A stretch of DNA of 64,000 nt from Takakia lepidozioides. Lineage: Eukaryota > Plantae > Bryophyta. The notes under the pieces are model-generated. The model searched no databases, was not told the DNA's origin, and worked only from the letters and a program-made list of their open reading frames with translations. The translations under genes and the position numbers were made by a program. This document shows, one piece after another, positions 9,797 through 59,749 of this stretch (positions are counted from its first letter, which is position 1; each line of letters begins with the position of its first letter). The stretch covers positions 29,450,001 through 29,514,000 of the forward strand of contig CM060733.1 in NCBI GenBank assembly GCA_030704615.1, written 5' to 3'.

Positions 9797-12700
9797 TATG
9801 TGTTCAAGACGGAGGTGTATCCTTGCAGGGAGGAAGATATGGAATTGACTTATGGCATGGGTTATTCTGTTGTAACTAGGTTGCTATCTGGACTTCAGGG
9901 GAAATGACATATTGTCACAATGGACAATTTCTTCTCGAGCCCCTTGCTTTTCTATGATCTTGCTGTCAAAGGTATCTATGCTACTGGCACTCTGAAGACA
10001 GTGCATGTGGGGTTCCCATCATGTCTTGACTTGTCGAAAAACAGGAGAGAGAGGTAGGCTGGACTACCGCATGCATATCTCTAACAATCAGCTAATTGCT
10101 TTGTCTTGGTATGATAACAAATGTGTGAACCTGCTCAGTACTATTGTGAGCCCGGTGGCTAAGAATTGTTTCATTCAAAGGTGGCACCGTGGTGCCCGCC
10201 GTCTTGTTCCCACCTCCCCCCATCATGAATCACTACCAACAACACATGAGGGGGGTTGATGTGTATGATCAGTTACGCGGTTACTACTCCGTACAAAACC
10301 GTGACCACAAGTGGTGGCAGGTTGTTCTTTCATTCGGTGAACACGACCTTGGTGAATTCCTACTTGCTGTATCAGGCCTTCATGAAACAGAAGGGTCGGA
10401 GCCCCCGATCACATCTTTTTTACAATATTTCAGTGGCCAGAGGACTGACTGTTGGGTGGCTTCGTTCAAGGAGAACAGTTCAGCCAGGGTGCTATGTCCC
10501 AAAACCTCAAGCAGTTCACTTCTCCGTAGAAGAAGGAAGTGTGTGGAGTGTGGTTGCAGGCAGAGGTACTACTGCCAGGCACGTGGAGATGTCCATGCGT
10601 GTTTGGGTGCTTGTTTTTTTGAAACGTCACAACCATGATGGACTTTGAAGTTGATGAGTTAACAGTTCTGGATTGTTTGCAACTGCAGAGATATGGCTGG
10701 TGCATGCAAGGAGGTTCCCACATCTTCCCACTTTCCTTCTTTCATTGTTTCTCTTTGTCTCATTCTGAACACACTAACTAGTTTAGGTATGGGAGCATCT
10801 ATGCTTGTCCTCGCTGTGAAGATGACATATCAGTGTCTATGCTGTCACCTTGGCAAGTAAAATCAGATTTGGTAGGACGGGTTGATGCAGGTGCTTGTGT
10901 AGTAGCTGTTGTCACCATGATGGACATGGAACTCTAAGATGCGGCATAGTAGATGTTAGCTTACAAACATTGTCAATTTGGCTAGAGCTGCAATTTTGTG
11001 GGGCTTAGTGTGGTGAAGCCCAATGTGGTTTGCTGCCCATTTTGTCTGGTTTCAGCTAGTGCATGTTTTGTAGGGCTAATGCTGCAGCTCAATGGTGCCA
11101 ATGCAGATTTTGTAGGCTATGCAGATTTTCAGTTGAATGAGACTCCAACTCAATGTTGTTGTCTGGAAATTTTGTAGGCCGACTTGTGCAGCTGAATGAA
11201 TCTACTGCATATTTGGAAGAGCTACTAGAGCTCAATGGCTAGTGTTGAAGGCATTAGCAAGGTCATAACTAGGTAAGTGTTAGTCCCCTGGCCATTCCCC
11301 CCTTTTGTTAATGCATGAGCTATCAATGGGACAATCATATGGGTTCAAATCCCACTCATGTATTTCAGCTTAGGAGGTGCAAGGGGGGATGGTGGTTTGC
11401 TATGTCAAGGTGGTACCATAGGGCAGGGCCTGTTGATTGAGAGCTTCATGCAAAATCACAAACACTAGCAGAGTAGTTGAAATGAAAAATGGACCCCCCT
11501 CACTTTGACCAAGTGTCACGTAGCCCTCATAAGTTGGCCAAATCCCTTCATTTTTCTCTTGTTGGATGAAGCATCCCAGGGGGATGCACTGGGAGCAAAT
11601 TCAGCCCAGATGGATGTCATCCCGTCACATAATCTCCCAAATTACCAGATCCAAATTAATTTATCTTACAAGGGCTTAAAAAATGGGCCCCATACTCAAC
11701 ATTGGAAAATTCGCAAGTCTAGATGGATTGCCTCCAAATTTGGCATGTAAGTGCAGGAGGTAGGTGAGATACTAATGTCCGGTCAAATTTTGGAATTTTC
11801 CATTTTCCAGCGAGATATCTCCATTTTTCGATGCTGGGGTCCGTTTTTCCCAAAAAGTCAACAAGGGGGTGTGGGTGTTTAAGGGTTATAGAGCCCACCC
11901 CCAAAAGGTGAATATATGTACCCCAAGTCATTCGAAAATAAAATCAACCAAAGCGGGGCGGACGGCTAAGAGGTTGTCGGAAGGAGGGTGGCTATTGCAT
12001 ACGGCCCCACATGGCTATTGCATGCCTTTGCAATTGCATGTGGGGCCATTTGGCGACTGCATGCAAGCGCTAATGTGACGAATGTTTTAGAATGTGATGA
12101 TGTTGTAGGGTGCGAGGGTGGGGAGTTGGAGTAGCAAAATAGAGTTAACATGAGAGAGGTGAGGAGAGAGGCATAGCCAAGAGAGAGGGCCTGCCATAGC
12201 TATGCAACAGAGGGTTTAAGGATTGCTAACCAACGGTGCTACAATGAAGAGGAAGGTATAAAGGGTCTACAACAACTACACATATATATTTATATAGGGA
12301 TTTTATGGGACACAAGTTGTATTTTTGACATGATTTTTCTGCTCCAAATTACTTCCACGATGCACTCGGGTCTGCTCGATTTCGACGTTCCATGGCTACG
12401 GATTGATATTTTCCAGATTCGAGGTGAATATGCCTCTTAGTTAGGCCATTATATACATATATAATGTATATATCTCTCAACACTTGTTGTCTAGTTCTAA
12501 GTTTAGACATTTGAGCTCTACAAGTAGAACCCAACTATTTGTAACTAAATTTAATCTTACTTTGATCTTACTCATTTAAGTGACAAAATTGTCGCCAAGC
12601 CGTCAATAAATGTGGAATTAGGACATGCCTTACTCTACGCACTCGATATATATGCCATACACACTCAACACCCCAACAAAAAAGACTACAAAACAACAAT

Positions 12701-15900: not shown

Positions 15901-16486
15901 AGCATATCGTAGCTCTCTCTTTCTTCAAAGTCACCTAGTTCATTTTTCTCTCCTCTCTCCCTTCATAGCGCAACTTATGATGCAAGATCAGAAAACAAGT
16001 GTCAAGTCTGTATCAGATTGGGGGCTGGAGCAGCTGACCTCAAATGAATGATGTCGATACCCATATATCAACATTTATTCCTTGTAATTAGGATTGTCGT
16101 TGGTGGGGCACGATCCTGTTGGAATGTTGGGCTGACATGCCATACCTTGGTGGTGGAAAACTTCCATCTGCCTTCATAAGGATTGGTAACCATGGCCTTG
16201 TGGTTGCATCATAGGCAACCTCTGCAAGGCGGTAGTCCATATATCTGGCATTTGGTTTGGGAAATCATTTCTGATTCTCCCTTGGCCTCGTTGGTGCTTC
16301 GGGATTCCACTTGACGTACCTGTCTCTGTCTTGCGACACTTGAAGGAGAGATTTAGGTCTTATTCACTAGCAGTTTCCTTGTGTGTACGCTTTCTTCTCC
16401 CATAAGCTCTTTGGTCTTGCTGTTGACGTCATCAGGTTATTATTTTTGTTTCTCTGTTCACATTGTTTCTATCTGTGTCTCTCAGA

Positions 16487-19400
16487 ATGAGATGGAATAT
16501 ATTCTCCAGGATGTGCCCCCTGTGGCAACCCCAATGGCGAAAATGATGGACTGTGTCTTGCCAGAGGGGGAGTGTGCTGTAACAAGGGCACCATGTAGGC
16601 GGGGCGGGGAGGCTTTACCAAAAGGGATAATACAGGCTACCACGGACTTGCAGCTCAGACCCCTTAGTAACAAGTACGAGGAGCAGGTTGTCTTGATTGC
16701 ACCTATATCAATGCTACTCTCTTTTTTCTTTCAAGAATAGCTCTTTAGTAGCTAATGTTGCATGTTCCTCAAAGCATTGATGATTCTTCTGGTAGCCTGC
16801 CTTGTTATTGGTACCTTTGTATGTGCATGTACATTCTGGTTATCATCTCACAGCAGGTAACCCCTATGCTTTGGTAGTTATTTTGGCAGGCACTTCAGGT
16901 TAATGTTTGAACGCCACAAGCTAGTACTTGGGAAGCAGTGTTCTGGGCAGAGAGGAAAGAGGGGTGGAAGGGATGGTGCTGTCAAATTTATAAACGCTTC
17001 AGGAGCAGGCTCATCAGTGCCTTATTGACTGACATGTGGTATTTGGATACATCAGATTCAACAAAACATGCCAAAGAATTTGCTGGCGATGGCAGTAGGT
17101 ATCAAGCAAAAGAAGAATGTTGATAAAATTGTACAAAAGGTCCAGCCAACACACCATTTCCCATGTATTGCTGGCAATTATCTATTTAAGCTGACATTGG
17201 TGATGTGCATGGTTTTCTCAGTGTATTTTCATGCAAAAGTCTAGAACCTTGTTTGTCAATCTTTTCCTCCATCTTGCACTTGGCTTCGATCTACCGCCCT
17301 GACATGATGTGTTGGTATGTTCAGTTTCCGCTGAGCAATTTCACAATCATGCTGTTCCACTATGATGGAACAGCTGAAAAATGGAGTGATTTGCCTTGGA
17401 GTAGTCAGACCATTCATATTGTTGCCTTGGATCAAACGAAATGGTACTCACCATCCCTTCCATGTGGTCTCACCCACGGCCCTTGCACTGCTTACTCAGT
17501 GATCTCTGTTTTCATCACTTGAGCGAAGTCAGACAAAGGCAGGTTAGCTCTGTACCTATCGCAGACTCGGAGCCTTATCTCTCTGACAGTTGTCTGCGTG
17601 GAGGGTTCAGGTGGTTTGCAAAGCGATTTTTACACCCAGATGTTGTGGCACAGTATAACTTCATTTTCTTATGGGATGAGGATCTTGGAGTCCAAAACTT
17701 CAATCCAGGCAGGTATGACATCCCTGGCTCTTTTCTCCTTCTAGCCCAAGTAGACGAAAATGTCACGAGAATGTTGTGATTCCTTCCCATTTTCAATCTA
17801 CATCCCCAAGTGGGTAGCAATATATGATCAACATTGGGCCAGGAAAACTTACTGTACTTAGTTTGTTCTTTTCCTTGTCCAGCTATTTGGACATAATGGA
17901 AGAGGAAGGGCTGGAGGTTTCGCAACCTGCCCTTGACCCTGCTGAATCAGCTGAGATTCACCATGGGATCACAGTCCTTAACAAAAGAAGCAGAGTGCAC
18001 AGGCAAGCCAACCATTTCTTCTCTCAATCGTTGCACTGGCCAGCTGATGCTTCTTGGCTCTTGTAAAACCCCTTGACTGGTAGGGGCTCTTCTTGTGTGT
18101 CATACAATAGTCATGTGTCTCTCTGCTATCACCAACTTTATTCTGATTGCCCCCCGTCTTTACATGCCAAACCAAACTTTCTACTTGTTGCTGATATGCT
18201 GCATTTGTGTTGTTCTGTTGGATCAGACGATTTTACAAAAATCAGGGAGCACAGCGTTGTACAGACAACAGCACGGGACCTCCTTGTACAGGGTAAGAGT
18301 CTCCAATTTTGTTATTTATCCGTTTATTCAATGAGGTCCGTCAAACTCTCTCTCGACGAGTTCACAAACAGTTCAGCAAAGTAGAAGCACTCAGAGACAA
18401 CAGGAAGCCCATGCTTTTATAACTAACTTCAAAATCGCGAGCCACCTCTACAAGCCCAGCCTAGGGAGGCCAAAGGGCAAGAAGTGACAAAGATGACAAA
18501 GCGACCAAGGCCCTCCAAAGGCTCAAAAGATGAGTTCTCAGAATGTAAGAAGCCTGGCAAGCTTACAGAACTAAATTGAGCAGGTCTCCAGCCATCAAAA
18601 GCAGGGGTGGGGTGCATCCAAAGCCTCGATGTCATACTTGCAGCTGAACCCCGAAGATACACAAAGGAAAAATGATGAAAATAGCTTTGACATGAAGCTC
18701 CCATGATGACAAAATTTTGCCTAGAGACGAAAGATTGATGGATCTTCAATCCTTAAATGAGCACCCATGGTCACGAAGCCAGGCCAATGCAGATAGGTAT
18801 GAGCCAGCTAGACTACTGAAAGTTGGCAACGAAACTGAAAATGGTTCCCTGAAACTATCGTTCCTTTCGGGTTTGTAGCCTCCAAGATTCTTAATCATTT
18901 GTCCCATAAGCTCATTGTGCTTCATGTGGACATAGTTTTTGACTCACTCTAGCCTCTCTTCCCACAGTCCTCGAAGCCCCTTGTGGATGAAATAGAAAAT
19001 TTATTTTTCCCTGATTTGTCTCTTTGGGTTAAGGTGAGGTTTCATTTATTTGCAGGTGGGTGGAGGTGATGGCACCAGTTTTTTCAAAGTCTGCTTGGAG
19101 GTGTGTTTGGTACATGATTCAGGTAAACATAACATGCTGCTTGGAGTGTCTTTTGAACGTATTTGTACTCTTCATAGCTTAGGAAGACAGTCTTGTAGTG
19201 TGCCAGTAAATGCAGCATCAAATCCTGCTCAAGCAACAAGGGAAAGTAACTGGATATCCATTCAATGGATTTCTCATGGTCAATCTGAGAAGTTATGGTA
19301 TCTATGCCATGCATTACTACAGTGACACCAACAGCTGGTACAAACTTTTTATACATCAGAATTGGACTTCAAACCAGCTGAACCATGACATAGCATTAAT

Positions 19401-21508
19401 TTTTTCTGTCTCTTCATGCTGAGAGGCATGGAAGCTCAGCTGGCGAGACGTTGCAGATGAATTCGAGTTCAGCATATATATATGAGAAATATAGGCACTA
19501 GATTTGACAACTTCGAATGACTTTGCTAGCAGGGTGTGTTATACTAAACTTACTGGTTTATTTGTGGAAAATGTGATGGAGTAGAATGATCTCATTCATG
19601 GCTGGGGCATTGATATGAAGCTCGGCTACTGTGTCAAGGTAACTTTTCAGTACTCTTGTACAAATTATGTTTGTGGGTTGCAGAGTTTTGAAATTCTCAA
19701 TCCCTTTGGCGGTTGTGACTTGTCGTGTAGGCATGGACAGCATGCATCCACAGCCAAGTATTGTAAGATAGTAATGACGACAGGAAGTGAGCTTGTTAAC
19801 TTAATGGAAGGACTCAATTTTCTGTAGTCCTGCTCCATTTTGCTTGGACTGCCCTTTGGGGGGCTTTACGGTAAAATATGTCTGTTCTTTTTTTTTTTTC
19901 TTACAGACAAACACACCATCCATCTAGAGAAGAATCGCCAACCAAATATCTAATGGTGCAGAGAGAAGATATGCACATGCCACAATTCACCTCGATGGAC
20001 CTTTCTGGCATCTTGGAGATTACGGTACCTCCGGGTTGGACCTGGTTCTGGAAAATTTCTGTTTATGGGCCAGTACTGAATACACAGCCTGGCATACCAG
20101 GGTTTGCAGAGCGAAAAAGTGGGAGTGATCGATGCTGAATACATTGTGCATCAAGGCATTCCCTCTCTTGGGGGTCCTCGGAACAAAGTAAGTGCAGCTA
20201 TTGACAGCTAGTAACAGCTAGCGTGAACGGGTTCTTGGGGTCAGTGCATGCTGGGACTAACAGTGTCTGTCGAAGGCTCTCCGGCAACTTATACATTGAT
20301 CATCCAGACACATAGAGGTGGCCTGGATCACACTCGTCAATCAAATTCACGATTTTCCCATCTCATCACCACCACTGAACTTATGGCACTATGACGAGTT
20401 TTTGACCTTCAGGGTCTTGTTACTTGATAGTGTACTTGGAAGTATTTCCTATTGATTAAACTAAGTGCTAAGTCAATTTCTCTTATCGACATGGAATCAC
20501 TTCCTCTTGGAGCAGCTCTGCTGTTTAAGGGATCTTTATGCCCATCCTTTTACTTTGGATGCCTTCATTCAAAATCATTAGAGGGTGTTGCCATGACTAT
20601 AAACATTTCACATGGAGGAGTTTGCATCTTTATTATGGGTGTTATTCTGTTGTGCGATAGGTTTAACTTCCACTCCCCGTCCCTGGCATGCTCTAGTCCC
20701 TCGAGGGCTCGACTCTGGAACAAAAGCTTCTTGTTCTGGCTAGAGCCCCCCGGACTTTATTTTTGTTTCTCAATCCATCAAGGCTTCTTTTTCAGGTTTT
20801 GGAATTTCTAATCTACTCCGTTTCTTGTGGTGTTTGCAGAGTGTATCTAATTTGAGGACAGAGGTTAGCTCCCAAAACCCTCCTCGGCCATAGGCCCCTC
20901 CTCTCCCCTGGAAGATATAAATTGTTTCCTTCTCTCTCCTGTGTGCAAAAACCTTCCTGCCTCCGGTAGAATGATAAATGTGTTCAGGGCAGAGATTGAG
21001 AAGGAAGAAAGTCTTTTCTTTCACTGTCCTCCCTACAAGGAGATCCAGGGATGATACTTTTGCCTACTCCAGGGCAGCCAATCCCTTGCTGAGGTCTTTC
21101 ATGACAAGATGCTTGGCAGCATATCTGCACAAGGTTTTCTCTAAGATGAATAGTTGGTTTCAGGCTTCTTGTTGTTAAGGGCCCCACTTTCTTGTATCTG
21201 CTTTCTTGTGTGCCATAAGCTCTTTGAGCTTCCCTTGGATGTCAGAGTTTCTTTCTTCCCTTCTTTGTTCCTTTGGGCCTCTCTCTATTTCCACAGCAAC
21301 CTTAATGAAAGCCTTCCCCACTTCTTGCTTCCTGCCACATGACACACCACATGTGGGATGGATGCTACAGGTCCGAAAGCGTTCTGGAGTGGAATTACGT
21401 ATTTTTCTTCAGCGGTGGCGAAAAGCAGCCAAGGAGGATCGAGATTGGATTAACCCTTACCCGAAGTCGAGTTATGTTTCTATGGCAAGTAAAACTCGCC
21501 AGAGGTAA
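16487..21508 (+). CDS. DUF707 family protein (lysine ketoglutarate reductase trans-splicing-related), multi-exon; 5' exons unresolved, probably in 15195-15730
   Basis: Exons at about 16487-16686 (EALPKGIIQATTDLQLRPL), 17056-17139 (KNLLAMAVGIKQK), 17325-17443 (FTIMLFHYDG...QTKW), 17611-17711 (WFAKRFLHPDVV..Y.FIFLWDEDLGV), 17883-18002, 18227-18292 (GPPCTG), 19056-19122 (WVEVMAPVFS..AWRCVWYMIQ), 19585-19638 (NDLIHGWGID), 20101-20187 (VGVIDAEYIVH.GIPSLG), 21371-21508. Phases are compatible at the junctions I checked. Confidence 0.93.
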
Positions 21509-22921
21509 CATATAGGACTTTCAGCTAAAAGGGGCAATCTCTGGAAACCGAAAACCCCATTGAAGCTGGACTTAGGCCCTTACTTTGATCTTTCTTTGAG
21601 CTCATAAAAAGTAAAGATTGACGTCAGGTGGTGCCAGAGTTTCCATAGAAGGCGATGTTGCGTGCAAGTGTACAGGGACCAACCCTGCCACATCGTGTCA
21701 AAAGAGCAGGATCTGGGTCCTCCAATTCTTTTAACTTTGTGGTTGAGCAGAGCTCAATCTGCAATAAACTTAAATGGGCAAGACAAGAGCCCATGAAACC
21801 TCAGCAGCAAGCAAACATTTGGTTAGCTGCCTAGACTCCTCCCTCTATCCTCCTCCCTGTCGCGAGGGAGATTGTTATCGAGCTTTGCTGGGGCATGTTG
21901 TACATTCTTCCACCTGTCCTTGCTTCCATGTTATGCTTGAGATATATGAAGTCAAAGAGGTCATTCATATACGGGTGCCGGTAGGAATGAAGGAAGTGGC
22001 CTTCCGGGTTGGAGGCTAGGAGTACACCAATTCTTCCAGTGTAAAGTATCCGTGGATCAATCTATTATTATAAGAACATGTTGGTTTTGCTCTCTGTGTA
22101 TCTTTCAAACATCTTGAAGGAGAAGGTAGAATCTGCGAATTGATCTTATCATGGCGTCCATTAGGTTGTCCATGAGAATGTTAAGTTTGGGATTGTGGGT
22201 TTAAGTTTTCTAAAACATGGACTATCACCAACTGTCCTTGCAATTATATGTACCTTGGCTGGCATGAATCCAAGGGTTTCCCGCCATGTAAGTGTTCTTA
22301 TCATTGGTTCTTGCCATGGCTTAGTGTGTTTGCTTGAATAAAGAAACCTTGACTCTTTTAGTGGGAACACGAGCAGGGAGATCGTGACGGCCCCAATGCC
22401 TGTGCAACAACTGACCACAACTAGAGGGAGAGGAACTTCAAACAAAGGTACAAAACAAATTGTTAAGAAGATCAGGCACCGTCGCGGAGAAGATGTTCTA
22501 AGGGAGCATAGATCTAATACCAGACATCATGTAAGGTCTGAGACGAGGGAGAAAAGCTCCATACATTGATTTCTATTGAACTTTCTTGCCAATGGCGCTA
22601 ATTTCACGCCTTACAGAGTGCAACCACAGGGGACGATAAGTAAAATTGATCAAATTCTTCCGAAGACTAAAGGTTAGTTCACAGGTAAGTTCAGTGTTTA
22701 CCTCAATTTTGAATGCGAAGAGTCTAATTCCTCACCTAAGCCTTTTTTGCACTTTTTTAAGCAAAGGTTACCGATTTTTTTGGCAACATGCTGACCTACC
22801 CACAGGTATTGAAAGTTTGGTACAACCTCCCTGAAGGCTGGCCATAATAACAAAATGGCCATGGCATGTCAGGGGGGCATTCAGCATTGACCATTCTTCG
22901 GCTAGCACTTTTCATGGTCAA

Positions 22922-23370
22922 GTACACATTCTGGTTATCATCTCAGAGGCTACAGCAGGATATCTCTATGCTTTGGTAGTTATTTTGGCAGGCAGTTCAG
23001 GTTAATGAATTCCCCAAGCCAGAACTTGAGAAGCACTGTTCCGGGCAGAGAGGGAAGAGGGGTGGCAGGGATGGTGTTGTCTAATATTTAAAAGCTGTCA
23101 GGGCCTACATGTGGAATTTGGACATGTCGAATTCAATGAAACATGCCAAAGAATTTACTGGCAGTAGAAATCAAGCAAAAGAAGAATGTTGATGATATTG
23201 TACTAAAGGTCCAGCCAGCACACAGTTTCCCATGTATTACTGGCAATTATGGAGTAATCAGACCATTCATATTGTTGCCTTGTAGCAAAGGAAGTGGTAC
23301 ACACATGCTCCCTTCCACAGGGTCTCACAAGGTCCGCCATGTTTTAACACCCAAGGCCCTTGCACTATTC
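22922..23370 (+). pseudogene. Partial genomic duplicate of DUF707 intron and exon sequence
   Basis: Aligns by eye to about 16830-17470, including intron sequence (CATTCTGGTTATCATCTCA..TGCTTTGGTAGTTATTTTGGCAGGCA) and the MPKNLLA..IKQKKNVD exon, with an internal deletion. Confidence 0.88.
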
Positions 23371-23389
23371 CCCGCCACATCATGAATTG

Positions 23390-23646
23390 GCATATGCTTG
23401 TAGGCACAACCTAGCTTCCCTTATCCACCCAGACAATCTCTGCAGCTTAGGATTGATTTACTTGATTTGTCCACGCAATTTTTGTTCCCAAACAAACGTA
23501 TGCACCTGGTTACCTCAATGAAGCTGTGCCCTGGCAGCTTTCTGACACTGTCCAACATCCTTACTCTCACTTTTGCTGTCTTATCCTACATGTCAGCAAC
23601 AGATGTTAATTGCCAACACAGGAATTGCGGTGTGCTGTAGATCCCA
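23390..23646 (-). pseudogene. Decayed E1/E2/E+ tail downstream of the PPR stop
   Basis: Read-through gives KCLL*WDLQHTAIPVLAINI, then KTAKVRVRMLDSVRKLPGHSFIEV..VHTF (PG-box-like), with stops and frameshifts. Confidence 0.75.
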
Positions 23647-26600
23647 CTAGAGAAGACACTTTGCTGCACGTTCTGCGATCTCCAAGTTGCCGTGAATTCT
23701 GCAGGCGCCAAGCAAGGCCCCCCACACTGAAACACCAGGTTCGATTGGCATTTCGTTAACGAACGACTCTGCTTCATCCAATCGCCCAGCACGGCCAAGA
23801 AGGTCAACCATGCAGCCAAAATGCTCTGCTGTAGGAGTGAAGCCATGATCTTGACTCATTGAAAGAAAGTAGTGGCGGGCTTCTTCCACTAGACCCACAT
23901 GGCTACATGCACAGAGAACACAGGTGAAGGTGACAACGTTCGGCTGCAAGCCTTCCTCTTGCATTTGCTCAAATAGTTGGAGCGCATCCCTACCACACCC
24001 ATGCTGACCATATCCTGCGATCATCACATTCCATGAGACCGCATCTCGTTCAGCCATACTGGCAAACACTTGATGTGCATCCTTCAAATCCCCACATTTG
24101 GCATACAGGTTGACAAGGGTATTCTCCAAATTAGTGGACTGCGCAATTCCTGCTTTGATAATGTCAGCATGAATGTCTTTGCCCTTTTCCAGGGCTGCCA
24201 GGCTCGCACATGCATTGAGAACACAGATGAATGTGACCTGATCAGGCGTCACCCCTTCCCGTATCATTTGCTCATACATATTGAGAGCTTCCTTGCCACA
24301 CCCATGCTGAGCATTTCCTGCAATAATCGCATTCCATGAGACCACATCTCGTTCAACCATTTTGTCGAATACTTGGCGTGCATCCCTCATGCTTCCACAC
24401 TTGGCATACATGTCGACAAGGGAATTTTCCAGAAAGAGATCACGCACGATTCCAGCTTTCATGATCTCAACATGGATCTCTTTGCCCTTTTCCAGGGCTG
24501 TCAGGCTGGCACATGCATTGAGAACGCAAATGAATGTGACCTTATCGGGAGTCACCCCTTCTCGTATCATCTGCTCATACATACTGAAAGCCTCCCTAGC
24601 ACACCCATGACGAGCATTTCCTGCAATGATCGAATTCCATGAGACCACATCACGTTGAGCCATATTGTCAAACACTTGATGTGCTTTGTTTATGCTCCCA
24701 CACTTGGCATACATGTCAAGAAGGGCATTCTCCAGAATGATATCTGGAATAATGCCCACTTTGATGACGTGAGCATGGACCTCTGTGCCCTTCGCCAAGT
24801 CTGCAAGGCTAGCACATGCACTGAGAATGCAAACAAATGTCACCTTGCTCGGCATTACTCCCTCTCGTATCATTCGCTCATATGTATCGAAAGCCTCCCT
24901 ACCAAATCCATTCTGAGCATATCCTCCAATCATGGTGTTCCATGAAACAACATTACGTTGAGCCATATTGTCAAACACCTGGCGCGCAACCTTCATGCTC
25001 CTGCATTTTGCATACATGTCAGCAAGGGCAGTCTCCAGAATGACATCTGTCTCAATTCCAGCTTTGATGATGTCAGCATGGACCTGTACGCCCTTCTGCA
25101 GGGCTGCCAGGTTGGCACATGCCTTAAGAATGCAAATAAATGTGACTTTGTTGGGCATCACCCCTTCCTGTATCATTTGTTCATAGATCTCCAAAGCCTC
25201 CCTACCACACCCATGCTTGGCATATCCTGCTATCATTATGTTCCAGGTAAACATACCTCGTTCAGACATTTTGTCAAACACTTGACGTGCATCCACTACA
25301 CTTCCGCACTTGGCATACATGTTCATAAGAGTGTCAAGGAGAAAGATGTTGGGTTTGAATCCAGTTTGGATGATGTGGGTGTGCACCTGCTTTCCCTCTG
25401 CTAGACGCTGCATTTTGATGCACCCCTGCAGGAGACACACATAGGTATCCAAGTCTGCCGAAATGCCTCGTCGGTTCACAATGTGCAGAGCCTCTTTCAA
25501 TCGGCCTGCCATACATAGTGGCCTCACATCACCACATTCTGCTTGACCCTGTACCATGGCACCTAGCTTTGCTTTCACCCAAGGAGGGTTAGACCAACTG
25601 TCAATCCAAAGCACCTCCTTTGTGCGCTTATGTCTGAAGTCTGGTGATCTTGGACTTCTCTGTGAAAACCACCTGTTGGGAGATGAGCAGCAATAGATCA
25701 ACAACAGCGTCACATAGACCAGGTTACAATGGGTCACATAGACCAGGTTACAATGGCAGGATACTTTCTTACGACCTAGCGAAAAGGGGCACTTTTGCTG
25801 TGAAATTGGCATCTAATTTAATCAGCTGGAGACAACAAAGCATAAAGCATGCCAGCTTGAGTCACAAGCGCTACATCAAAGTCAATTTCATGTCCTAAAT
25901 AAGATAGCCTCACCTTATCAAACCGGTTATCCCACCACTCTGAAGGATCTGAGAAGAATTCTTGCCATAGTAGTTCGTTGCACATCGTTTCACCTGCGTG
26001 CACAAACTCCAAGACCATCATATCTCCAGATTTCGATTGTCCCCGCCTCTACTGAGAGAGCCAGTGCCTGAATTTAAATCTTCACCCCTATTAGGGTCAG
26101 TGCAAGCTTCCCCCAAAATCTCTCTTCCCCTCTCCCTCACCCCCTGCACCTCTGTTTACCAACTTTGAAAATCTTGACGCCCTGTTGGGGTCTAATTGCT
26201 GGGCAGATCACACACATCAGGATGATGCCTGTGTGAAGGGCTATGTAGAGCATATCTGTAATGCCCGAACTATTTGTCTTTACCAAGGTAAGTCACACTA
26301 CCGGAGTGAGCCCCTGACAAAGGTAGTTTCCCTTTAGTTCCGCCCAAACTGGGCGCGGGGTCTATGGCCACCAGGCTATGGCAAACAACGTCTTACGAGT
26401 ACATTCTCTATGTCTCGCTCCCTCTCACACACACGCTATTGGTGCTAGTTGCTGTCAAGGAATCGAGTCGAGAACTGGGCTACTAGCCGCATTGTCATTC
26501 ACTATGAACAAGCTTATGCAGGTCAACTGCCATACCAAGTGGGTAGATCCTAGGCCACTACGCCCTCGAGAGTTGAATCAGTTTTATCAGAGCGAAACTT

Positions 26601-26803
26601 GTGAGCAACATGTCTGTACCTTCCTTCGGCATCCCTGCAGCCTGTCCAGGCGTCACAGCCACCACTCGCAAGGGTCCGGGGCCGGCAATTCCCAAACTGG
26701 ATACCCACTTCCGCTTCACTGCCCGACCCATTACTCTCCTGCATGATCTGACGCAATCCCCTTCTGCCCCTGCACTGAGAATGGCAGCGGCGTCCGCTGC
26801 CAT
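23647..26803 (-). CDS. PDF-motif (OSB-like) plus PLS-class PPR protein, about 758 aa, ending within E1
   Basis: Model: exon 1 26803-26620 (phase 1, transit-peptide-like), exon 2 25993-25914, exon 3 25659-23647; all GT-AG and in frame. Splicing rebuilds LWQEFFSDPSEWWDNRFDK|RSPRSPDFRHKRTKEVLWIDSWSNPPWV. Then L-S-(PLS)x4-P2-L2-S2-E1(partial). Exon 1 is less certain. Confidence 0.9.
26143..26412 (+). mobile_element. 3' fragment of the RTE-like LINE family seen at 61.4-64 kb, antisense within PPR intron 1
   Basis: PLFTNFENL..LLG..WA.HT.Q.DAC.KG and 3' UTR GACAAAGGTAGTTT..CCCTTT..TTCCGC.CAAACTGGGCGC..AACAACGTCT match the reverse complement of 61400-61690. Confidence 0.85.
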
Positions 26804-28186: not shown

Positions 28187-28947
28187 ATGGCACTACCGAG
28201 AGTTGCTTTGATCAATTTTGGTGTCTATCTGTTGTTTCTTGTGGCTACTGGTTTGAATCCCCTCCACACATATATTCTATATTTCTAGCTCATTTCTACT
28301 ACTTTTGCAAGTCTCATTATGGCTGCTCCGATTTCAATTGGCATGAAATTAGGTCCTTTGTCACCTCATGTTGGCTATTGATTTGGATGTATGTCGCTTA
28401 CTGAAATGAGTCATGCTTGTGTTTGTTTGTTTGTTTGCACCTAAACTGCTTAATGATATTAATATGTTTTACACATCACAGATTGGGGGGATTACTTGTT
28501 CCGGCCATGAGAAAAGAGTCAAAGATTTGGTCCCGATATCCAAGGTTATTCAGTCTTGGTTGAAACCACATCACACCCATCCCACCAACTTTCTTATCTA
28601 GGACATGTTCATAGTTGAAGTATCGCCTCTGCGTTTGTGCGCGGGTCGTGGTTGTATCAGGATCAGCAGAGTTTCAGCCTGTCTGTGAAACTTCTGGAGC
28701 TAGCCCGGTGACTGCAGACTGCGCGGCAATAATTTCTTATTTCGCGAATCTTGGCGGAAGTTGTTGTAACAATAATCGCTTCGCAAGCCTATGCACCACC
28801 CAAATTGATACTAACAATTGCGCCGTTGGGATTTGTGGAGGTTTTGATTGTCAACCCTGCAGGCTAGTAGCCGACTATGTGGCTGCCATAATGGGCCAAG
28901 CGCAGTCAATCGATGGGCATTACATTCTGGTGGCTATGAATATATGA
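28187..28947 (+). CDS. Small secreted cysteine-rich protein (2 coding exons), resembling fungal Ecp2/Hce2- or KP4-type proteins
   Basis: Exon 1 28187-28250 encodes signal peptide MALPRVALINFGVYLLFLVATG. Phase-1 GT-AG intron. Exon 2 28661-28947 encodes SAEFQPVCETSGASPVTADC...CC...C...C...C...C..C. A 5'UTR intron (about 28003-28169) and a TATA-like element at about 27892 are also present. Family assignment is tentative. Confidence 0.75.
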
Positions 28948-51494: not shown

Positions 51495-52191
51495 ATCCGA
51501 CAGCCTGGATCTCCACCTGCGAGTGGACCCCGCTTGATAATTTTTGACGTTAATGGAGTGTTGTGCAAAATAATGAAGCGTCAGAGCACAGGCCCTGTTC
51601 CACATTTTTCGGAATCTGATTACAAAATTCATGTTATTGTAGGGTATCGACAAATCTTTAGAAGGGAGATGTATTGGGAAGTTTGACAAGAGTTACACAA
51701 GCACTTTCATTTTAGGTATCTGGAGCTGCATGATGCTTAAAAACTTAAATGCCGTTCTAGATTTGCTCCTACGTGGTCTTCCACAGCCAGCGTTCATCAT
51801 GTCGCAGGAGGATTGTATCATTTGCCCAAGCAATCTGCACCCAAATTACCGAACGGGACAAGAACAACCTCATGTGTTCCTGAAACCACTCCTTAAAGTA
51901 TGGCAGAGTTCTAAGGGTTATTACAATCGGAGTAACACTCTGCTGATTGATGATATGGCTTTGAAGTGCTTGCTGAACCCTCCTGAATCTTGTCTTCTTC
52001 TCAAGTCTTTTGAGAACATCGACGTCGACGATTTCTTCCTTCGCAAACTTAGACATTTTTTGTTTGGCTTCTTGAAATTTGAGAACGTTTCGAGCTTCTT
52101 GAAAGCAAAGAGAATAGACTTTCCACCTTTCAAAATTAATGATCCACAGTTCAGGCCTCTTCTTGACTATAGACAATTCACAATATCGTGA
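51495..52191 (+). pseudogene. FCP1/NIF (HAD-family) domain, copy 2
   Basis: LIIFDVNGVLC ... GIWSC ... FIMSQEDC ... FLKPLLKVW ... NTLLIDD..LKC.LNP; frameshifted near 51660-51720. Confidence 0.8.
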
Positions 52192-53756
52192 ATTCCGAGT
52201 AAATGATAGTAAATATTCGCGACCTACTGTGGACACAGTTTACTACTTAATATTGATTGTGAAGACCATGGAATTTCAGTCTTCTTCTGATATTCTTCTG
52301 CATTGCATGGAAATTGTTATATTGCCAATCCATATGCAATTGTCAATGGATTCATTGTTCCTTTATGTCTGTCGATTTTTTTCAGAACCACGCGTGATCA
52401 CGCGTTTTTTCAACTCAAATTTCTTACTTTGTTGACATATATTTCATTTGCAGGTATGCCCATATCAATATGTTCTCCACGCCACAAATACATCTCCAAT
52501 TGGCGAAACATGTTCGTCTGATATTGTTGACGATGTAGAAATGATCAGGCCAGAAGCTTTCCAAGGACCGGACAACTTGTTGTCTACTCAGACATCCATT
52601 GTTGTTATGGAGAGTGATCCCATCAGTGTTCCGGATATTGTTTCGAGGCTCAAAATGTCAAAAGGTGAATCCACAGTTAGCAGGGTCGATGATTTAACTG
52701 GGGTTGGCTGCATAGTGGAAAACGACTCTCAATATCTTGGGGAATCCTCTTTGGAGCCGTCCTTATCCCAACAATTTCCACCAGATGCTGTCACGGGGCA
52801 TCTACATGAGTCTACCGAATAACAGGTTCCATTGGTTGCAACTGTCGCTGAACTGCCTCCTTATCATGTCGTAATTCCAAGCGGGTCACCGGATCACGAG
52901 GGCTGGACACCTCAGCTGCTGAGAAGTCAGGTGATTTAATTCTATTTCATCCATGCGTTTTTTTGTTACCGTGTTTCTGTTCATCCTCCAATTTTCTTTC
53001 ATTACTCAAGGCTAGGAAAGCTGTAACGTATGACCTTCTTGTGAAGCGACAACTTCTGTGGGGTTGTATTCTAAGGTAATCATTTTTTTTCCGTTTGAAT
53101 TCGGTTCAGTATGTGCAGAAAGAAAGAAACCGAATTCCATTGTCAAACGTCAACGAGAAGGTTATTGAACTCACTCATTCGCCGACTGAGGTCAGCACAC
53201 CGACGAGACCGGCAAATACTTCTGCACATCTCCAACCCCCCATAATTTCGGATGGTCCTATGTCAAGGAAACGTTACAGATCACAGCAGTCAGCGGTGGT
53301 CGTGTCCGACGATGAAAAAACGGCATCTGGCGTTCTGTTATCCCTTCAACATTCGCTTGCCTCCAGTGGTAACCCGCCTCAGAATCGAAGGATAAATCTA
53401 GCAAAAGTAATAAGTATCTCCTTCACTTGGTCCTCTGTCTTATTGATTCTGGCTTTCCAGTAATCTTTACATATATCATTTACATTGTTGACACAACTTG
53501 ACACAAAAGAACCTCGCGCGATCGCGCGTGGTTGCAGGAAACTCAGAGACTCCTGATTGTGCTTGTTTGTCTCAAGTTACAATTGGGTGTCGTAATGCTG
53601 AGTTAGGACCTCATTCACAAAATATTACATTTGAATATCAGGGTATAAAAACTAGGTAAACCACAAAACGCAAGTATGTCGTAGCATTTTTTGAGTTGCA
53701 AGATATACTGGAAATACTTAATTTTTGGGTCAGATAACAGAAACTAATGGGTTTTT

Positions 53757-54515
53757 TTGGATGGTTCAGAACGTTGTTACTCAAGAACTGTGTGGTGTCG
53801 GAAACACAAGCACATGTTGTTGGTACTGAGTGTCAATGGACTTCTTTGCTACATGCCACCTCGTACCGGAGGTGAGTTGTTTAAACAAAGGTTCCACTTG
53901 AGGAAAGTAACAATTCGGGTGCCCGCAAGACCATTTGTGGTTCTAAGACCTGGAGTGCTGGAGTTTCTTCGACTTACATTGACTCATTTTCATGTAGTGA
54001 TTTGGTCTTGTTTTGAGAGGGATACTGTATTCAAGATGTTGGAGTGTTTCGTTTCTTCGGAAATTATGAAACAATTTCGTTTCATATGGTCTGCCGAGCA
54101 TTGCACAGATACAGCTGAACATATTAAGCCTGGAATGAAATATCTTATTAAAGATATTAAGAGTATTCTCGTAAAATTTAGTAGGAAAGAATTTGCTAGG
54201 CAGGGGCAAATTCTACTGGTCGACGATGACCCATCCAAGGCACTTCGAAACTCAGTGAATACTGGAGTCTTCCCGATCACATTCAAGGAATCTAGCAATT
54301 TGGAGGATTTGGTTGACCTCAGCAAAACATTGTGGCCTTTTCTCTCGGGCTTGATTGGAGCCCAGTCCGTTGTTGATTATGTCGGCAAGAATTCCTGCAT
54401 ATCTTCAGGCCCACCGATAGATCGAAATCACGTCTACTGGTCCTGGTTTGGAAGATTTATTGATGCTTCTGTTTGGCACCCACCTCAAAAAGATTCTGAT
54501 TATCTGGGTATGTAG
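53757..54515 (+). CDS. FCP1/NIF (HAD-family) domain, copy 3; open 252-aa frame with the first catalytic Asp replaced
   Basis: LLVLSVNGLLC ... LRPGVLEFL....FHVVIWS ... FIWSAEHC ... IKDIK ... ILLVDDDPSKALRN...VFP.TF. Confidence 0.8.
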   Translation: MDGSERCYSRTVWCRKHKHMLLVLSVNGLLCYMPPRTGGELFKQRFHLRKVTIRVPARPFVVLRPGVLEFLRLTLTHFHVVIWSCFERDTVFKMLECFVSSEIMKQFRFIWSAEHCTDTAEHIKPGMKYLIKDIKSILVKFSRKEFARQGQILLVDDDPSKALRNSVNTGVFPITFKESSNLEDLVDLSKTLWPFLSGLIGAQSVVDYVGKNSCISSGPPIDRNHVYWSWFGRFIDASVWHPPQKDSDYLGM

Positions 54516-59076: not shown

Positions 59077-59589
59077 TTACGGTAGGGGACGAGGATTCCA
59101 CCTGAGTGAATAGTAATCAGCAGCAGGCACGACGCACACTAGAGCAAGTTCAGAACCTTCATCTTTCCAAAACTGCAGTTCCATATAAGTACCAGGAATT
59201 GTACAGTCGCCGTTTCCTACTAACTGAGGATCCGGATGCGTCTTTCTCCAGGTCGCTTCATCAGTGTGACTGGCCCACAGCGGCTTATTATCTCCACCAT
59301 ACACCACCAAGTTTCCATCCTCTTGGAGCGTCAGACGGCAATTGGAACTTCTGGACGCAGTCCCAGCTTTCCAGAGGATTTCCTCTCCATATAGATCAGT
59401 GTAAGTTAGAACGAAATCGCAATCCGTACTCATCCCCGCCAGGTAGTCGATATCATTGTTCGGCGTTATGTAATCTCCCTCGTAAAGGGACTCTCCCACA
59501 TGCAACCAATGACCCAAACCTACAACCAACGCTGGAAGCGTGCAGAATGCCATCAACAGGACCACTGCAAACAACCCAGCTTTGCCCAT
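59077..59589 (-). CDS. Secreted bulb-type (GNA-like) mannose-binding lectin, 170 aa, intronless
   Basis: Signal peptide MGKAGLFAVVLLMAFCTLPALVVG; L.VGESL..G; ILW.AGT..C.LTLQEDGNLVVY...PLWASHT (QxDxNxVxY motif). Confidence 0.88.
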   Translation of the reverse strand: MGKAGLFAVVLLMAFCTLPALVVGLGHWLHVGESLYEGDYITPNNDIDYLAGMSTDCDFVLTYTDLYGEEILWKAGTASRSSNCRLTLQEDGNLVVYGGDNKPLWASHTDEATWRKTHPDPQLVGNGDCTIPGTYMELQFWKDEGSELALVCVVPAADYYSLRWNPRPLP

Positions 59590-59749
59590 CTCTCTGATCT
59601 TTCGGTGGCTTCAAGCCTAGGATAAGTGGAAAAAGCCCGCTCGAACTAGAAGAAACATGTACTTGGATCTCCATTGCCTAGCTGAAGGTTAAATACAGGG
59701 CACGCAACATTGACTTCCGCCCATCTCGAGGGGGACCGTCAAATCTAAT

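Follow-up and report, generated by a model that had tools for sequence, protein, structure and literature searches.

Introduction

OSB proteins (AtOSB1-4) combine an SSB-like OB fold with one to three C-terminal PDF motifs of 50–60 residues. The PDF motif of AtOSB1 has been reported to be sufficient for ssDNA binding in a passage of one review (PMC6963530), and OSBs are said to favour ssDNA over RNA in a passage of another (PMC4166229). In the passages concerned, both reviews describe the PDF motif solely in OSB proteins. The gene described here, from the moss Takakia lepidozioides, encodes this same PDF motif. It differs from OSB genes in that it lacks the OB fold and carries its PDF motif at the N-terminus, with a PLS-class pentatricopeptide repeat (PPR) array following the motif.

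PLS-class DYW editors, such as Physcomitrium PPR56 and PPR45, have PLS triplets that end in P2-L2-S2-E1. This gene shares that organization and retains remnants of E2, the PG box and E+, but its product ends in E1, has no deaminase and possesses a PDF motif. The relevant section of a Physcomitrium study attributes editing in that moss to DYW-type proteins only, and PDF is missing from the additional domains that it tabulates (PMC9459714). E domains are reported to be essential for editing in the section of a further paper that deals with them, which also gives E-type CRR4 with DYW1 as a case of DYW acting in trans (PMC5295000).

PLS proteins without E2 or DYW, as here, include PpPPR_9, PpPPR_31, PDM1/SEL1 and PGL12, and they are the best functional model for this gene. 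PpPPR_9 and PpPPR_31 are splicing factors, according to the part of the Physcomitrium study that covers them (PMC9459714). All four end in the array, whereas the gene described here lost its tail recently enough for the remnant to be readable, and contains a PDF motif. Truncated PLS and E proteins are described as numerous in lycophytes, and MORF proteins as confined to seed plants, in the main text of a 2026 survey of editing-factor fusions (PMC13386178). The same text presents RRM-PPR (PPR4), PPR-SMR and MORF-P as accessory nucleic-acid-binding domains combined with PPR arrays, and contains no match to either PDF or OSB. PDF fusions differ from these architectures in being PLS-class and in being named from seedless plants only. 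A search of the open-licence literature found no description of PDF-PPR fusions. The PDF motif and PLS-PPR proteins are each known, and it is their combination that seems undescribed.

Gene structure and splicing

The window is the whole 64,000-nucleotide stretch of DNA that was analysed. An open frame on its minus strand runs from 25812 to 23647, and a three-exon model built around it (Table 1), in which exon 3 is a single open frame from 25659 to 23647, encodes 758 residues with zero internal stops. Intron 2 has the donor AAG/GTGAGG at 25913 and the acceptor TTTTCACAG/ at 25660, and none of the other AGs near this acceptor (25674, 25659 and 25656) is in frame. The intron also contains a perfect 24-nt tandem duplication at 25709-25756. 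The initial annotation had proposed that removing intron 2 restores a complete PDF motif, and this is borne out by an OSB-only profile, for which 18 OSB-type proteins supplied 43 PDF copies. The spliced motif reaches 80.3 bits across profile positions 5-57 of 59, and the unspliced halves alone score 30.6 and 48.5 bits.

Table 1. Features of the PDF-PPR gene and the adjoining sequence (positions in the window)
Feature	Position	Strand	Evidence and remarks
Exon 1, coding	26620..26803	-	ATG at 26803; 61 codons + 1 base; open frame, AG/GTACAG donor; phase as in homologue L001/L053
Intron 1	25994..26619	-	626 nt, phase 1, GT-AG; contains high-copy repeat (about 26123-26556)
Exon 2	25914..25993	-	80 nt; encodes PDF N-terminal half (25976-25914); profile match
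Intron 2	25660..25913	-	254 nt, phase 0, GT-AG; interrupts PDF motif
PDF C-terminal half, start of exon 3	25561..25659	-	profile match; 224 OSB-type and PPR-fused proteins at E<=0.001
Linker and partial first PPR helix	25453..25560	-	aligns with N-terminal helix of Diphasiastrum fusions
17 PLS repeats	23734..25452	-	L1-S1-(P1-L1-S1)x4-P2-L2-S2; zero stops or frameshifts; Pfam PPR_2 E 2.7e-101
E1, partial	23647..23733	-	28 residues, then TAG (23649-23647); stop unchanged in RNA contigs from two studies
Decayed remainder of E1, E2, PG box and E+	23413..23646	-	now 3' untranslated; 2 further stops, 2 frameshifts; frameshift-aware alignment
Partial genomic duplicate of the neighbouring DUF707 gene, decayed	22926..23366	+	source 16831-17489, including intron sequence; occupies the expected DYW place; blastn

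The three-exon model is supported by an 80-nt exon 2 in homologues, by a spliced form of one homologue (locus L001) and by paralogous RNA contigs joined across the same 254 nt. The middle exon is likewise 80 nt long, with identical phases, in the metagenome loci L052, L053 and L055, which resemble the Sphagnum protein P0133; these three loci made up the comparison, since a fourth such locus, L056, lacks the search strings. L001 is 98% identical to L053 across the first 257 bases and 92% identical across exon 3, and both introns are absent from it exactly at the two intron positions of the PPR gene; L001 may be a transcript or a retrocopy. Paralogous RNA contigs from the species of the window bridge the identical 254 nt (25653 to 25914; 25661 to 25926). 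Support from RNA for the model consists of these paralogous joins and of RNA over the 3' end; among the RNA contigs, none with the gene's own letters spans intron 1 or intron 2, which graph breaks at paralogues could account for and which therefore counts neither for nor against the model.

The position of intron 2 seems, on sequence comparison, to be common to OSB genes and the PDF-PPR gene. Gene calls on genomic DNA include 91 PDF halves without a matching N-terminal half, and 27 of them start at Q, the reading of a CAG acceptor in frame, six residues ahead of the PDF signature, versus 1 of 179 complete motifs; the count uses a crude pattern, and the 91 halves include long-loop variants. Some of the Q-start halves resemble OSB C-termini. 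The end of intron 2 itself resembles a PDF N-terminal half, which at the codon level looks like chance.

The product of exon 1 is a possible organelle targeting leader. Its first 40 residues include seven basic and three acidic ones, an ambiguous composition with no clear transit peptide.

The PDF motif

The spliced motif carries the register W, P, W-D-R-K, P-D-F, K, L-W and P-W-V within about 50 residues. At 16 columns of the motif, 80% or more of the OSB copies agree; 15 of these columns are identical here, and the sixteenth has changed from K to R. The predicted structure of a PDF motif from an OSB-type locus (L022) consists of a helix, short strands and a helix with a mean pLDDT of 93, and the motif is accordingly predicted to fold alone. 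A sequence search of solved structures returned no matches to PDF, and structural comparison gave best values of E 2.7 (Foldseek) and Z 2.7 (VIA); such missing matches do not establish a new fold. No Pfam model matched the motif at this locus.

Pfam detects no OSB-like SSB/OB fold in any of the three exon frames, and only 62 residues lie ahead of the motif in exon 2. Pfam SSB is present in 11 of the scanned OSB-type matches.

One paralogous RNA contig from the same species contains several tandem PDF motifs (joints 25654-25570 and 25958-25540) and derives from either an OSB or a multi-PDF PPR gene.

The PPR array

In exon 3 the frame of the second PDF half continues into 17 PLS repeats, as had been claimed for the locus, and the P, L and S motifs (35, 35 and 31 residues) follow one another in register. 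Motif names were set by length and by convention. A few residues in the array are non-consensus. Internal dN/dS of the array motifs is 0.18-0.47, a signal that mostly predates the loss of the tail. The closest proteins are 49-54% identical across about 700 residues including the PDF motif (Diphasiastrum, about 53%), and the Atlas returned generic PPR clusters only.

The P and S motifs carry mostly N/D, N/N and N/S code pairs, with one T/N. Under the PPR code as given in the relevant part of the source (PMC5295000), these pairs predict a pyrimidine-rich RNA site of low information.

A family of PDF-PLS fusions

Word-index searches with either PDF half gave no matches, and a full HMMER scan succeeded. 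With the C-terminal half as the query, 13 of the 150 matches listed, out of 224 proteins, also contain PLS repeats. Eleven of these 13 were looked up; they include five from Diphasiastrum complanatum and one each from Sphagnum, Adiantum, Ceratopteris and Riccia sorocarpa. A second search, with a profile built on nine fused motifs, matched 372 proteins, and 86 PDF-PPR fusions are found among the 120 matches listed, 81 of them gene models of a single species, Diphasiastrum, some of which are isoforms or possibly have mis-annotated ends. The fusions carry one to three PDF copies, as OSBs do, and the PDF is N-terminal in 85 of the 86 listed. The gene described here has the same arrangement, with an N-terminal PDF motif in frame with a PLS array, and the exon structure of L053/L001. 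No PPR repeats occur in the seed-plant matches among the 120 listed of 372, in a search whose query was biased. The fusion is not a single case; it belongs to a family that is represented in a clubmoss and in peat mosses, ferns and the liverwort Riccia.

The C-terminal ends of the 86 listed fusions vary: 26 have a complete DYW, 13 end in E+ or DYW, 39 in E2, four in S2 or E1, and four earlier. A complete DYW is thus absent from 60 of the 86, and tail loss is the commoner state. Downstream PPR repeats are present at 51 of 80 metagenome loci, which form 18 groups. Two groups are intact, seven stay open through S2 with breaks only beyond it, seven are broken in the array, one is mixed and one is cut by a contig end. 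Because the PDF motif also occurs on complete DYW editors, on the sequence evidence it predates the loss of the tail, and the proportion of tail-less fusions together with the locus groups indicates that tail loss is habitual in the family. The proposal that the PDF motif arrived with the repurposing of this gene does not hold, given the 26 listed fusions with a complete DYW. A PDF tree (60 columns, 44 motifs; alignment A2, which includes intron-derived N-termini, was left out) is mostly unresolved, and a single fusion clade is not rejected (p-AU 0.19).

The Riccia sorocarpa PDF-PLS protein, a single gene model, is tail-less. Riccia belongs to the Marchantiales, and complex thalloid liverworts are reported to be without editing in a passage that does not name Riccia itself (PMC5295000). 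The tail-less Riccia protein suggests a job independent of editing.

Several other PDF-containing sequences were encountered. Proteins P0001, P0002, P0004, P0010, P0013 and P0197 have 7-13 matched PDF stretches, mostly without another Pfam domain. P0064 combines PDF motifs with a kinesin domain and is perhaps a mis-joined model. A partial PDF motif lies 3' of the stop at two PDF-PPR loci (L001:2607-2807 and L021:3072-3272).

The decayed editing tail

The frame ends within E1, as first described, at the TAG after 28 E1 residues. Frameshift-aware alignment to 27 DYW-complete relatives places stops at 23649, 23588 and 23460 and frameshifts near 23601 and 23513. The initial annotation was right that a decayed E2 and PG box lie downstream, but the remnant is longer than it stated, as it also contains E+ and extends to about 23413, and the two peptides quoted for it lie in two different frames. 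Identity to the tail consensus is 56% ahead of the first stop and 38% beyond it; in three of three DYW-complete loci from outside, identity rises across the same point, from 44-50% to 51-60%. No Pfam family matched any of the tail's three read-through frames; the profile of the 27 DYW-complete relatives did match the tail. These profile matches stop at position 168 of 260, and a search with the profile found no DYW remnant down to 22000. The product thus falls outside the DYW subgroup, having no E1-E2-DYW with HxE and CxxC in frame, and outside the E/E+ subgroup, its E2 and PG box being out of frame and beyond a stop.

Aligned to its source over 414 columns, the decayed duplicate of the DUF707 gene shows 52 mismatches and 6 indels; the divergence is 0.137 changes per site. 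What looked like further E+ sequence below 23370 was discounted, as it falls in this duplicate. The DUF707 gene itself (window 16485-22075, plus strand; DUF707 by Pfam) is expressed, has at least 11 exons and one GC-AG intron (18003-18226), and is convergent with the PPR gene.

Transcription and constraint

Ten introns of the DUF707 gene are skipped, with 0-1 differences, in sequencing runs X1 and X2, which therefore hold RNA of the source species. Constant depth ratios had raised the suspicion that the runs were DNA; the skipped introns rule this out. Contigs from the two studies cover the broken tail at 23355-23724 (1 difference) and 23363-23654 (3 differences) with zero gaps. Because both runs contain the broken tail, assembly error is ruled out as the source of its lesions, and transcription extends over the 3' end; the contigs carry no strand or level information. 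The ends of the two tail contigs lie within 8 bases of each other, which faintly suggests where the transcript may end. The intron 1 repeat (window 26123-26556) reaches a summed contig depth of up to 21,000 at 85% likeness in both RNA runs and is possibly a small transposon.

All five lesions lie within the last ~240 nt of the region, and none in the 2274 coding nt. Had the gene died at its first lesion, the probability that the four others all fall in 236 of 2510 bases would be 7.8e-5, a figure weakened because this locus was selected, out of what are probably hundreds of paralogues, for having a long frame. A neutral frame at half of 0.137 changes per site would accumulate a mean of 5.4 stops (3 of 500 simulations were stop-free) and about 11 frameshifts, on the assumption, built into dating by the duplicate, that the DUF707 duplication removed DYW. 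At 0.02 changes per site, a fifth of the neutral simulations were stop-free. This distribution, with every lesion in the tail and none in the coding bases, speaks more for a truncated protein under selection than for a pseudogene. The description of a former editing factor whose PPR frame remains intact fits these results: the PDF motif and array are open behind a dead tail, and there is RNA from the locus.

Proposed function and alternatives

The PPR gene is a C-terminally truncated member of the PDF-PLS family, with a dead tail and RNA over its 3' end, and we put the probability that it makes a live, non-catalytic organellar RNA binder at roughly 0.55. The order of events, organelle import, translation and every binding step in the following scheme are inferred. 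An OSB-derived PDF motif would have joined a PLS-DYW editor long ago. DYW would then have been lost at this locus, possibly via local duplication of DUF707 sequence, and the tail would have eroded back to E1 while selection preserved the PDF motif and the array. The protein would be imported into mitochondria or plastids, where its 17 repeats may read a pyrimidine-rich RNA sequence and the inherited N-terminal PDF motif may add a sequence-independent grip on adjacent single-stranded nucleic acid. Lacking E2 and DYW, it would act by occupying or unfolding RNA, in splicing or stabilization, and not by editing; the tail-less splicing factors PpPPR_9 and PpPPR_31 are the model for this role.

The grip of the PDF motif might instead be on DNA, in which case the protein would be a dual RNA/ssDNA tether, with PDF bound to the ssDNA of nucleoids, of transcription bubbles or of R-loops and keeping the array near nascent RNA. 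Such a tether would serve co-transcriptional editing in DYW-bearing relatives and transcript tethering or protection here. The ssDNA, nucleoid or R-loop role is drawn entirely from OSB proteins, from the reported sufficiency of the AtOSB1 motif and the reported preference of OSBs for ssDNA; consistent with it, the motif here is as OSB-like as the OSB copies, is predicted to fold alone, and occurs in one to three copies on fusions and OSBs alike. The protein has no OB fold, however; one PDF motif in what is probably a monomer may bind weakly, and a motif tied to an RNA-bound array has RNA as its nearest single strand. It could equally grip RNA beside the PPR site, and the tether is considered unlikely.

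A live RNA binder must also be weighed against a transcribed pseudogene, one decaying copy of an over-expanded PPR family whose open frame reflects luck, recency or gene conversion. Paralogues are very many, some positions being covered by as many as about 100 contigs, the array is broken in 7 of the 18 related locus groups and has its few non-consensus residues here, and the gene's own splice joins are not seen in RNA contigs. An array that is dead could stay free of lesions through gene conversion from paralogues. Against this stand the clustering of the lesions, the neutral expectation of about 16 of them, the intact splice sites and PDF motif, and the presence of the same lesions in three samples, which together make a pseudogene decidedly improbable.

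A continuing part in editing, with the truncated protein marking a site for DYW in trans or competing with editors and so damping off-target editing, has the CRR4 and DYW1 precedent, the 39 of 86 listed fusions that end in E2 and the abundance of truncated lycophyte proteins in its favour, but is very unlikely for a protein that stops inside E1, and so lacks the E domain reported as essential, in view of the restriction of editing to DYW-type proteins in Physcomitrium.

Implications

More broadly, it is possible, though doubtful, that seedless plants, which are without MORF, possess a large and so far overlooked class of PLS proteins into which an OSB-derived module for single-strand binding is built, a module that links the sequence-specific recognition of RNA to organellar ssDNA or unfolds RNA. 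The PDF-PLS part would then have its own function, separate from editing, and would for that reason survive repeated DYW loss, as at this locus, in clubmoss and moss copies and in a presumably editing-free Riccia. If true, this would account for the persistence of 'truncated' PLS genes in their hundreds and would mean that editing factors have another, more ancient task. As PDF matched no Pfam model or solved structure in the searches made here, PPR surveys would miss it, though dozens of seedless-plant editing-type proteins have it.

Should PDF help PLS arrays to bind or find their targets, it would be a candidate stand-in for MORF and a 55-residue part for designer PPR editors. The MORF comparison is a guess from the named range of PDF-PPR proteins, which complements that of MORF. 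The locus would represent tail loss caught midway, with the deaminase gone, the remnant readable and datable, and the binding part open, so that the role of truncated PLS proteins becomes directly testable here.

Other features of the window

Four further features were noted elsewhere in the window. A bulb-type lectin ORF lies at 59077-59610 on the minus strand (Pfam B_lectin E 2.9e-6, under the cut-off). Two intronless NIF/FCP1-like phosphatase ORFs (51643-52191 and 53748-54515, plus strand) are located amid repeat-like DNA. A small cysteine-rich ORF at 28615-28947 (plus strand) has a weak Pfam Hce2 match (E 0.0018, under the cut-off), and a piggyBac/IS4-like transposase remnant with a weak Pfam DDE_Tnp_1_7 match is found at 10150-10638 (plus strand).
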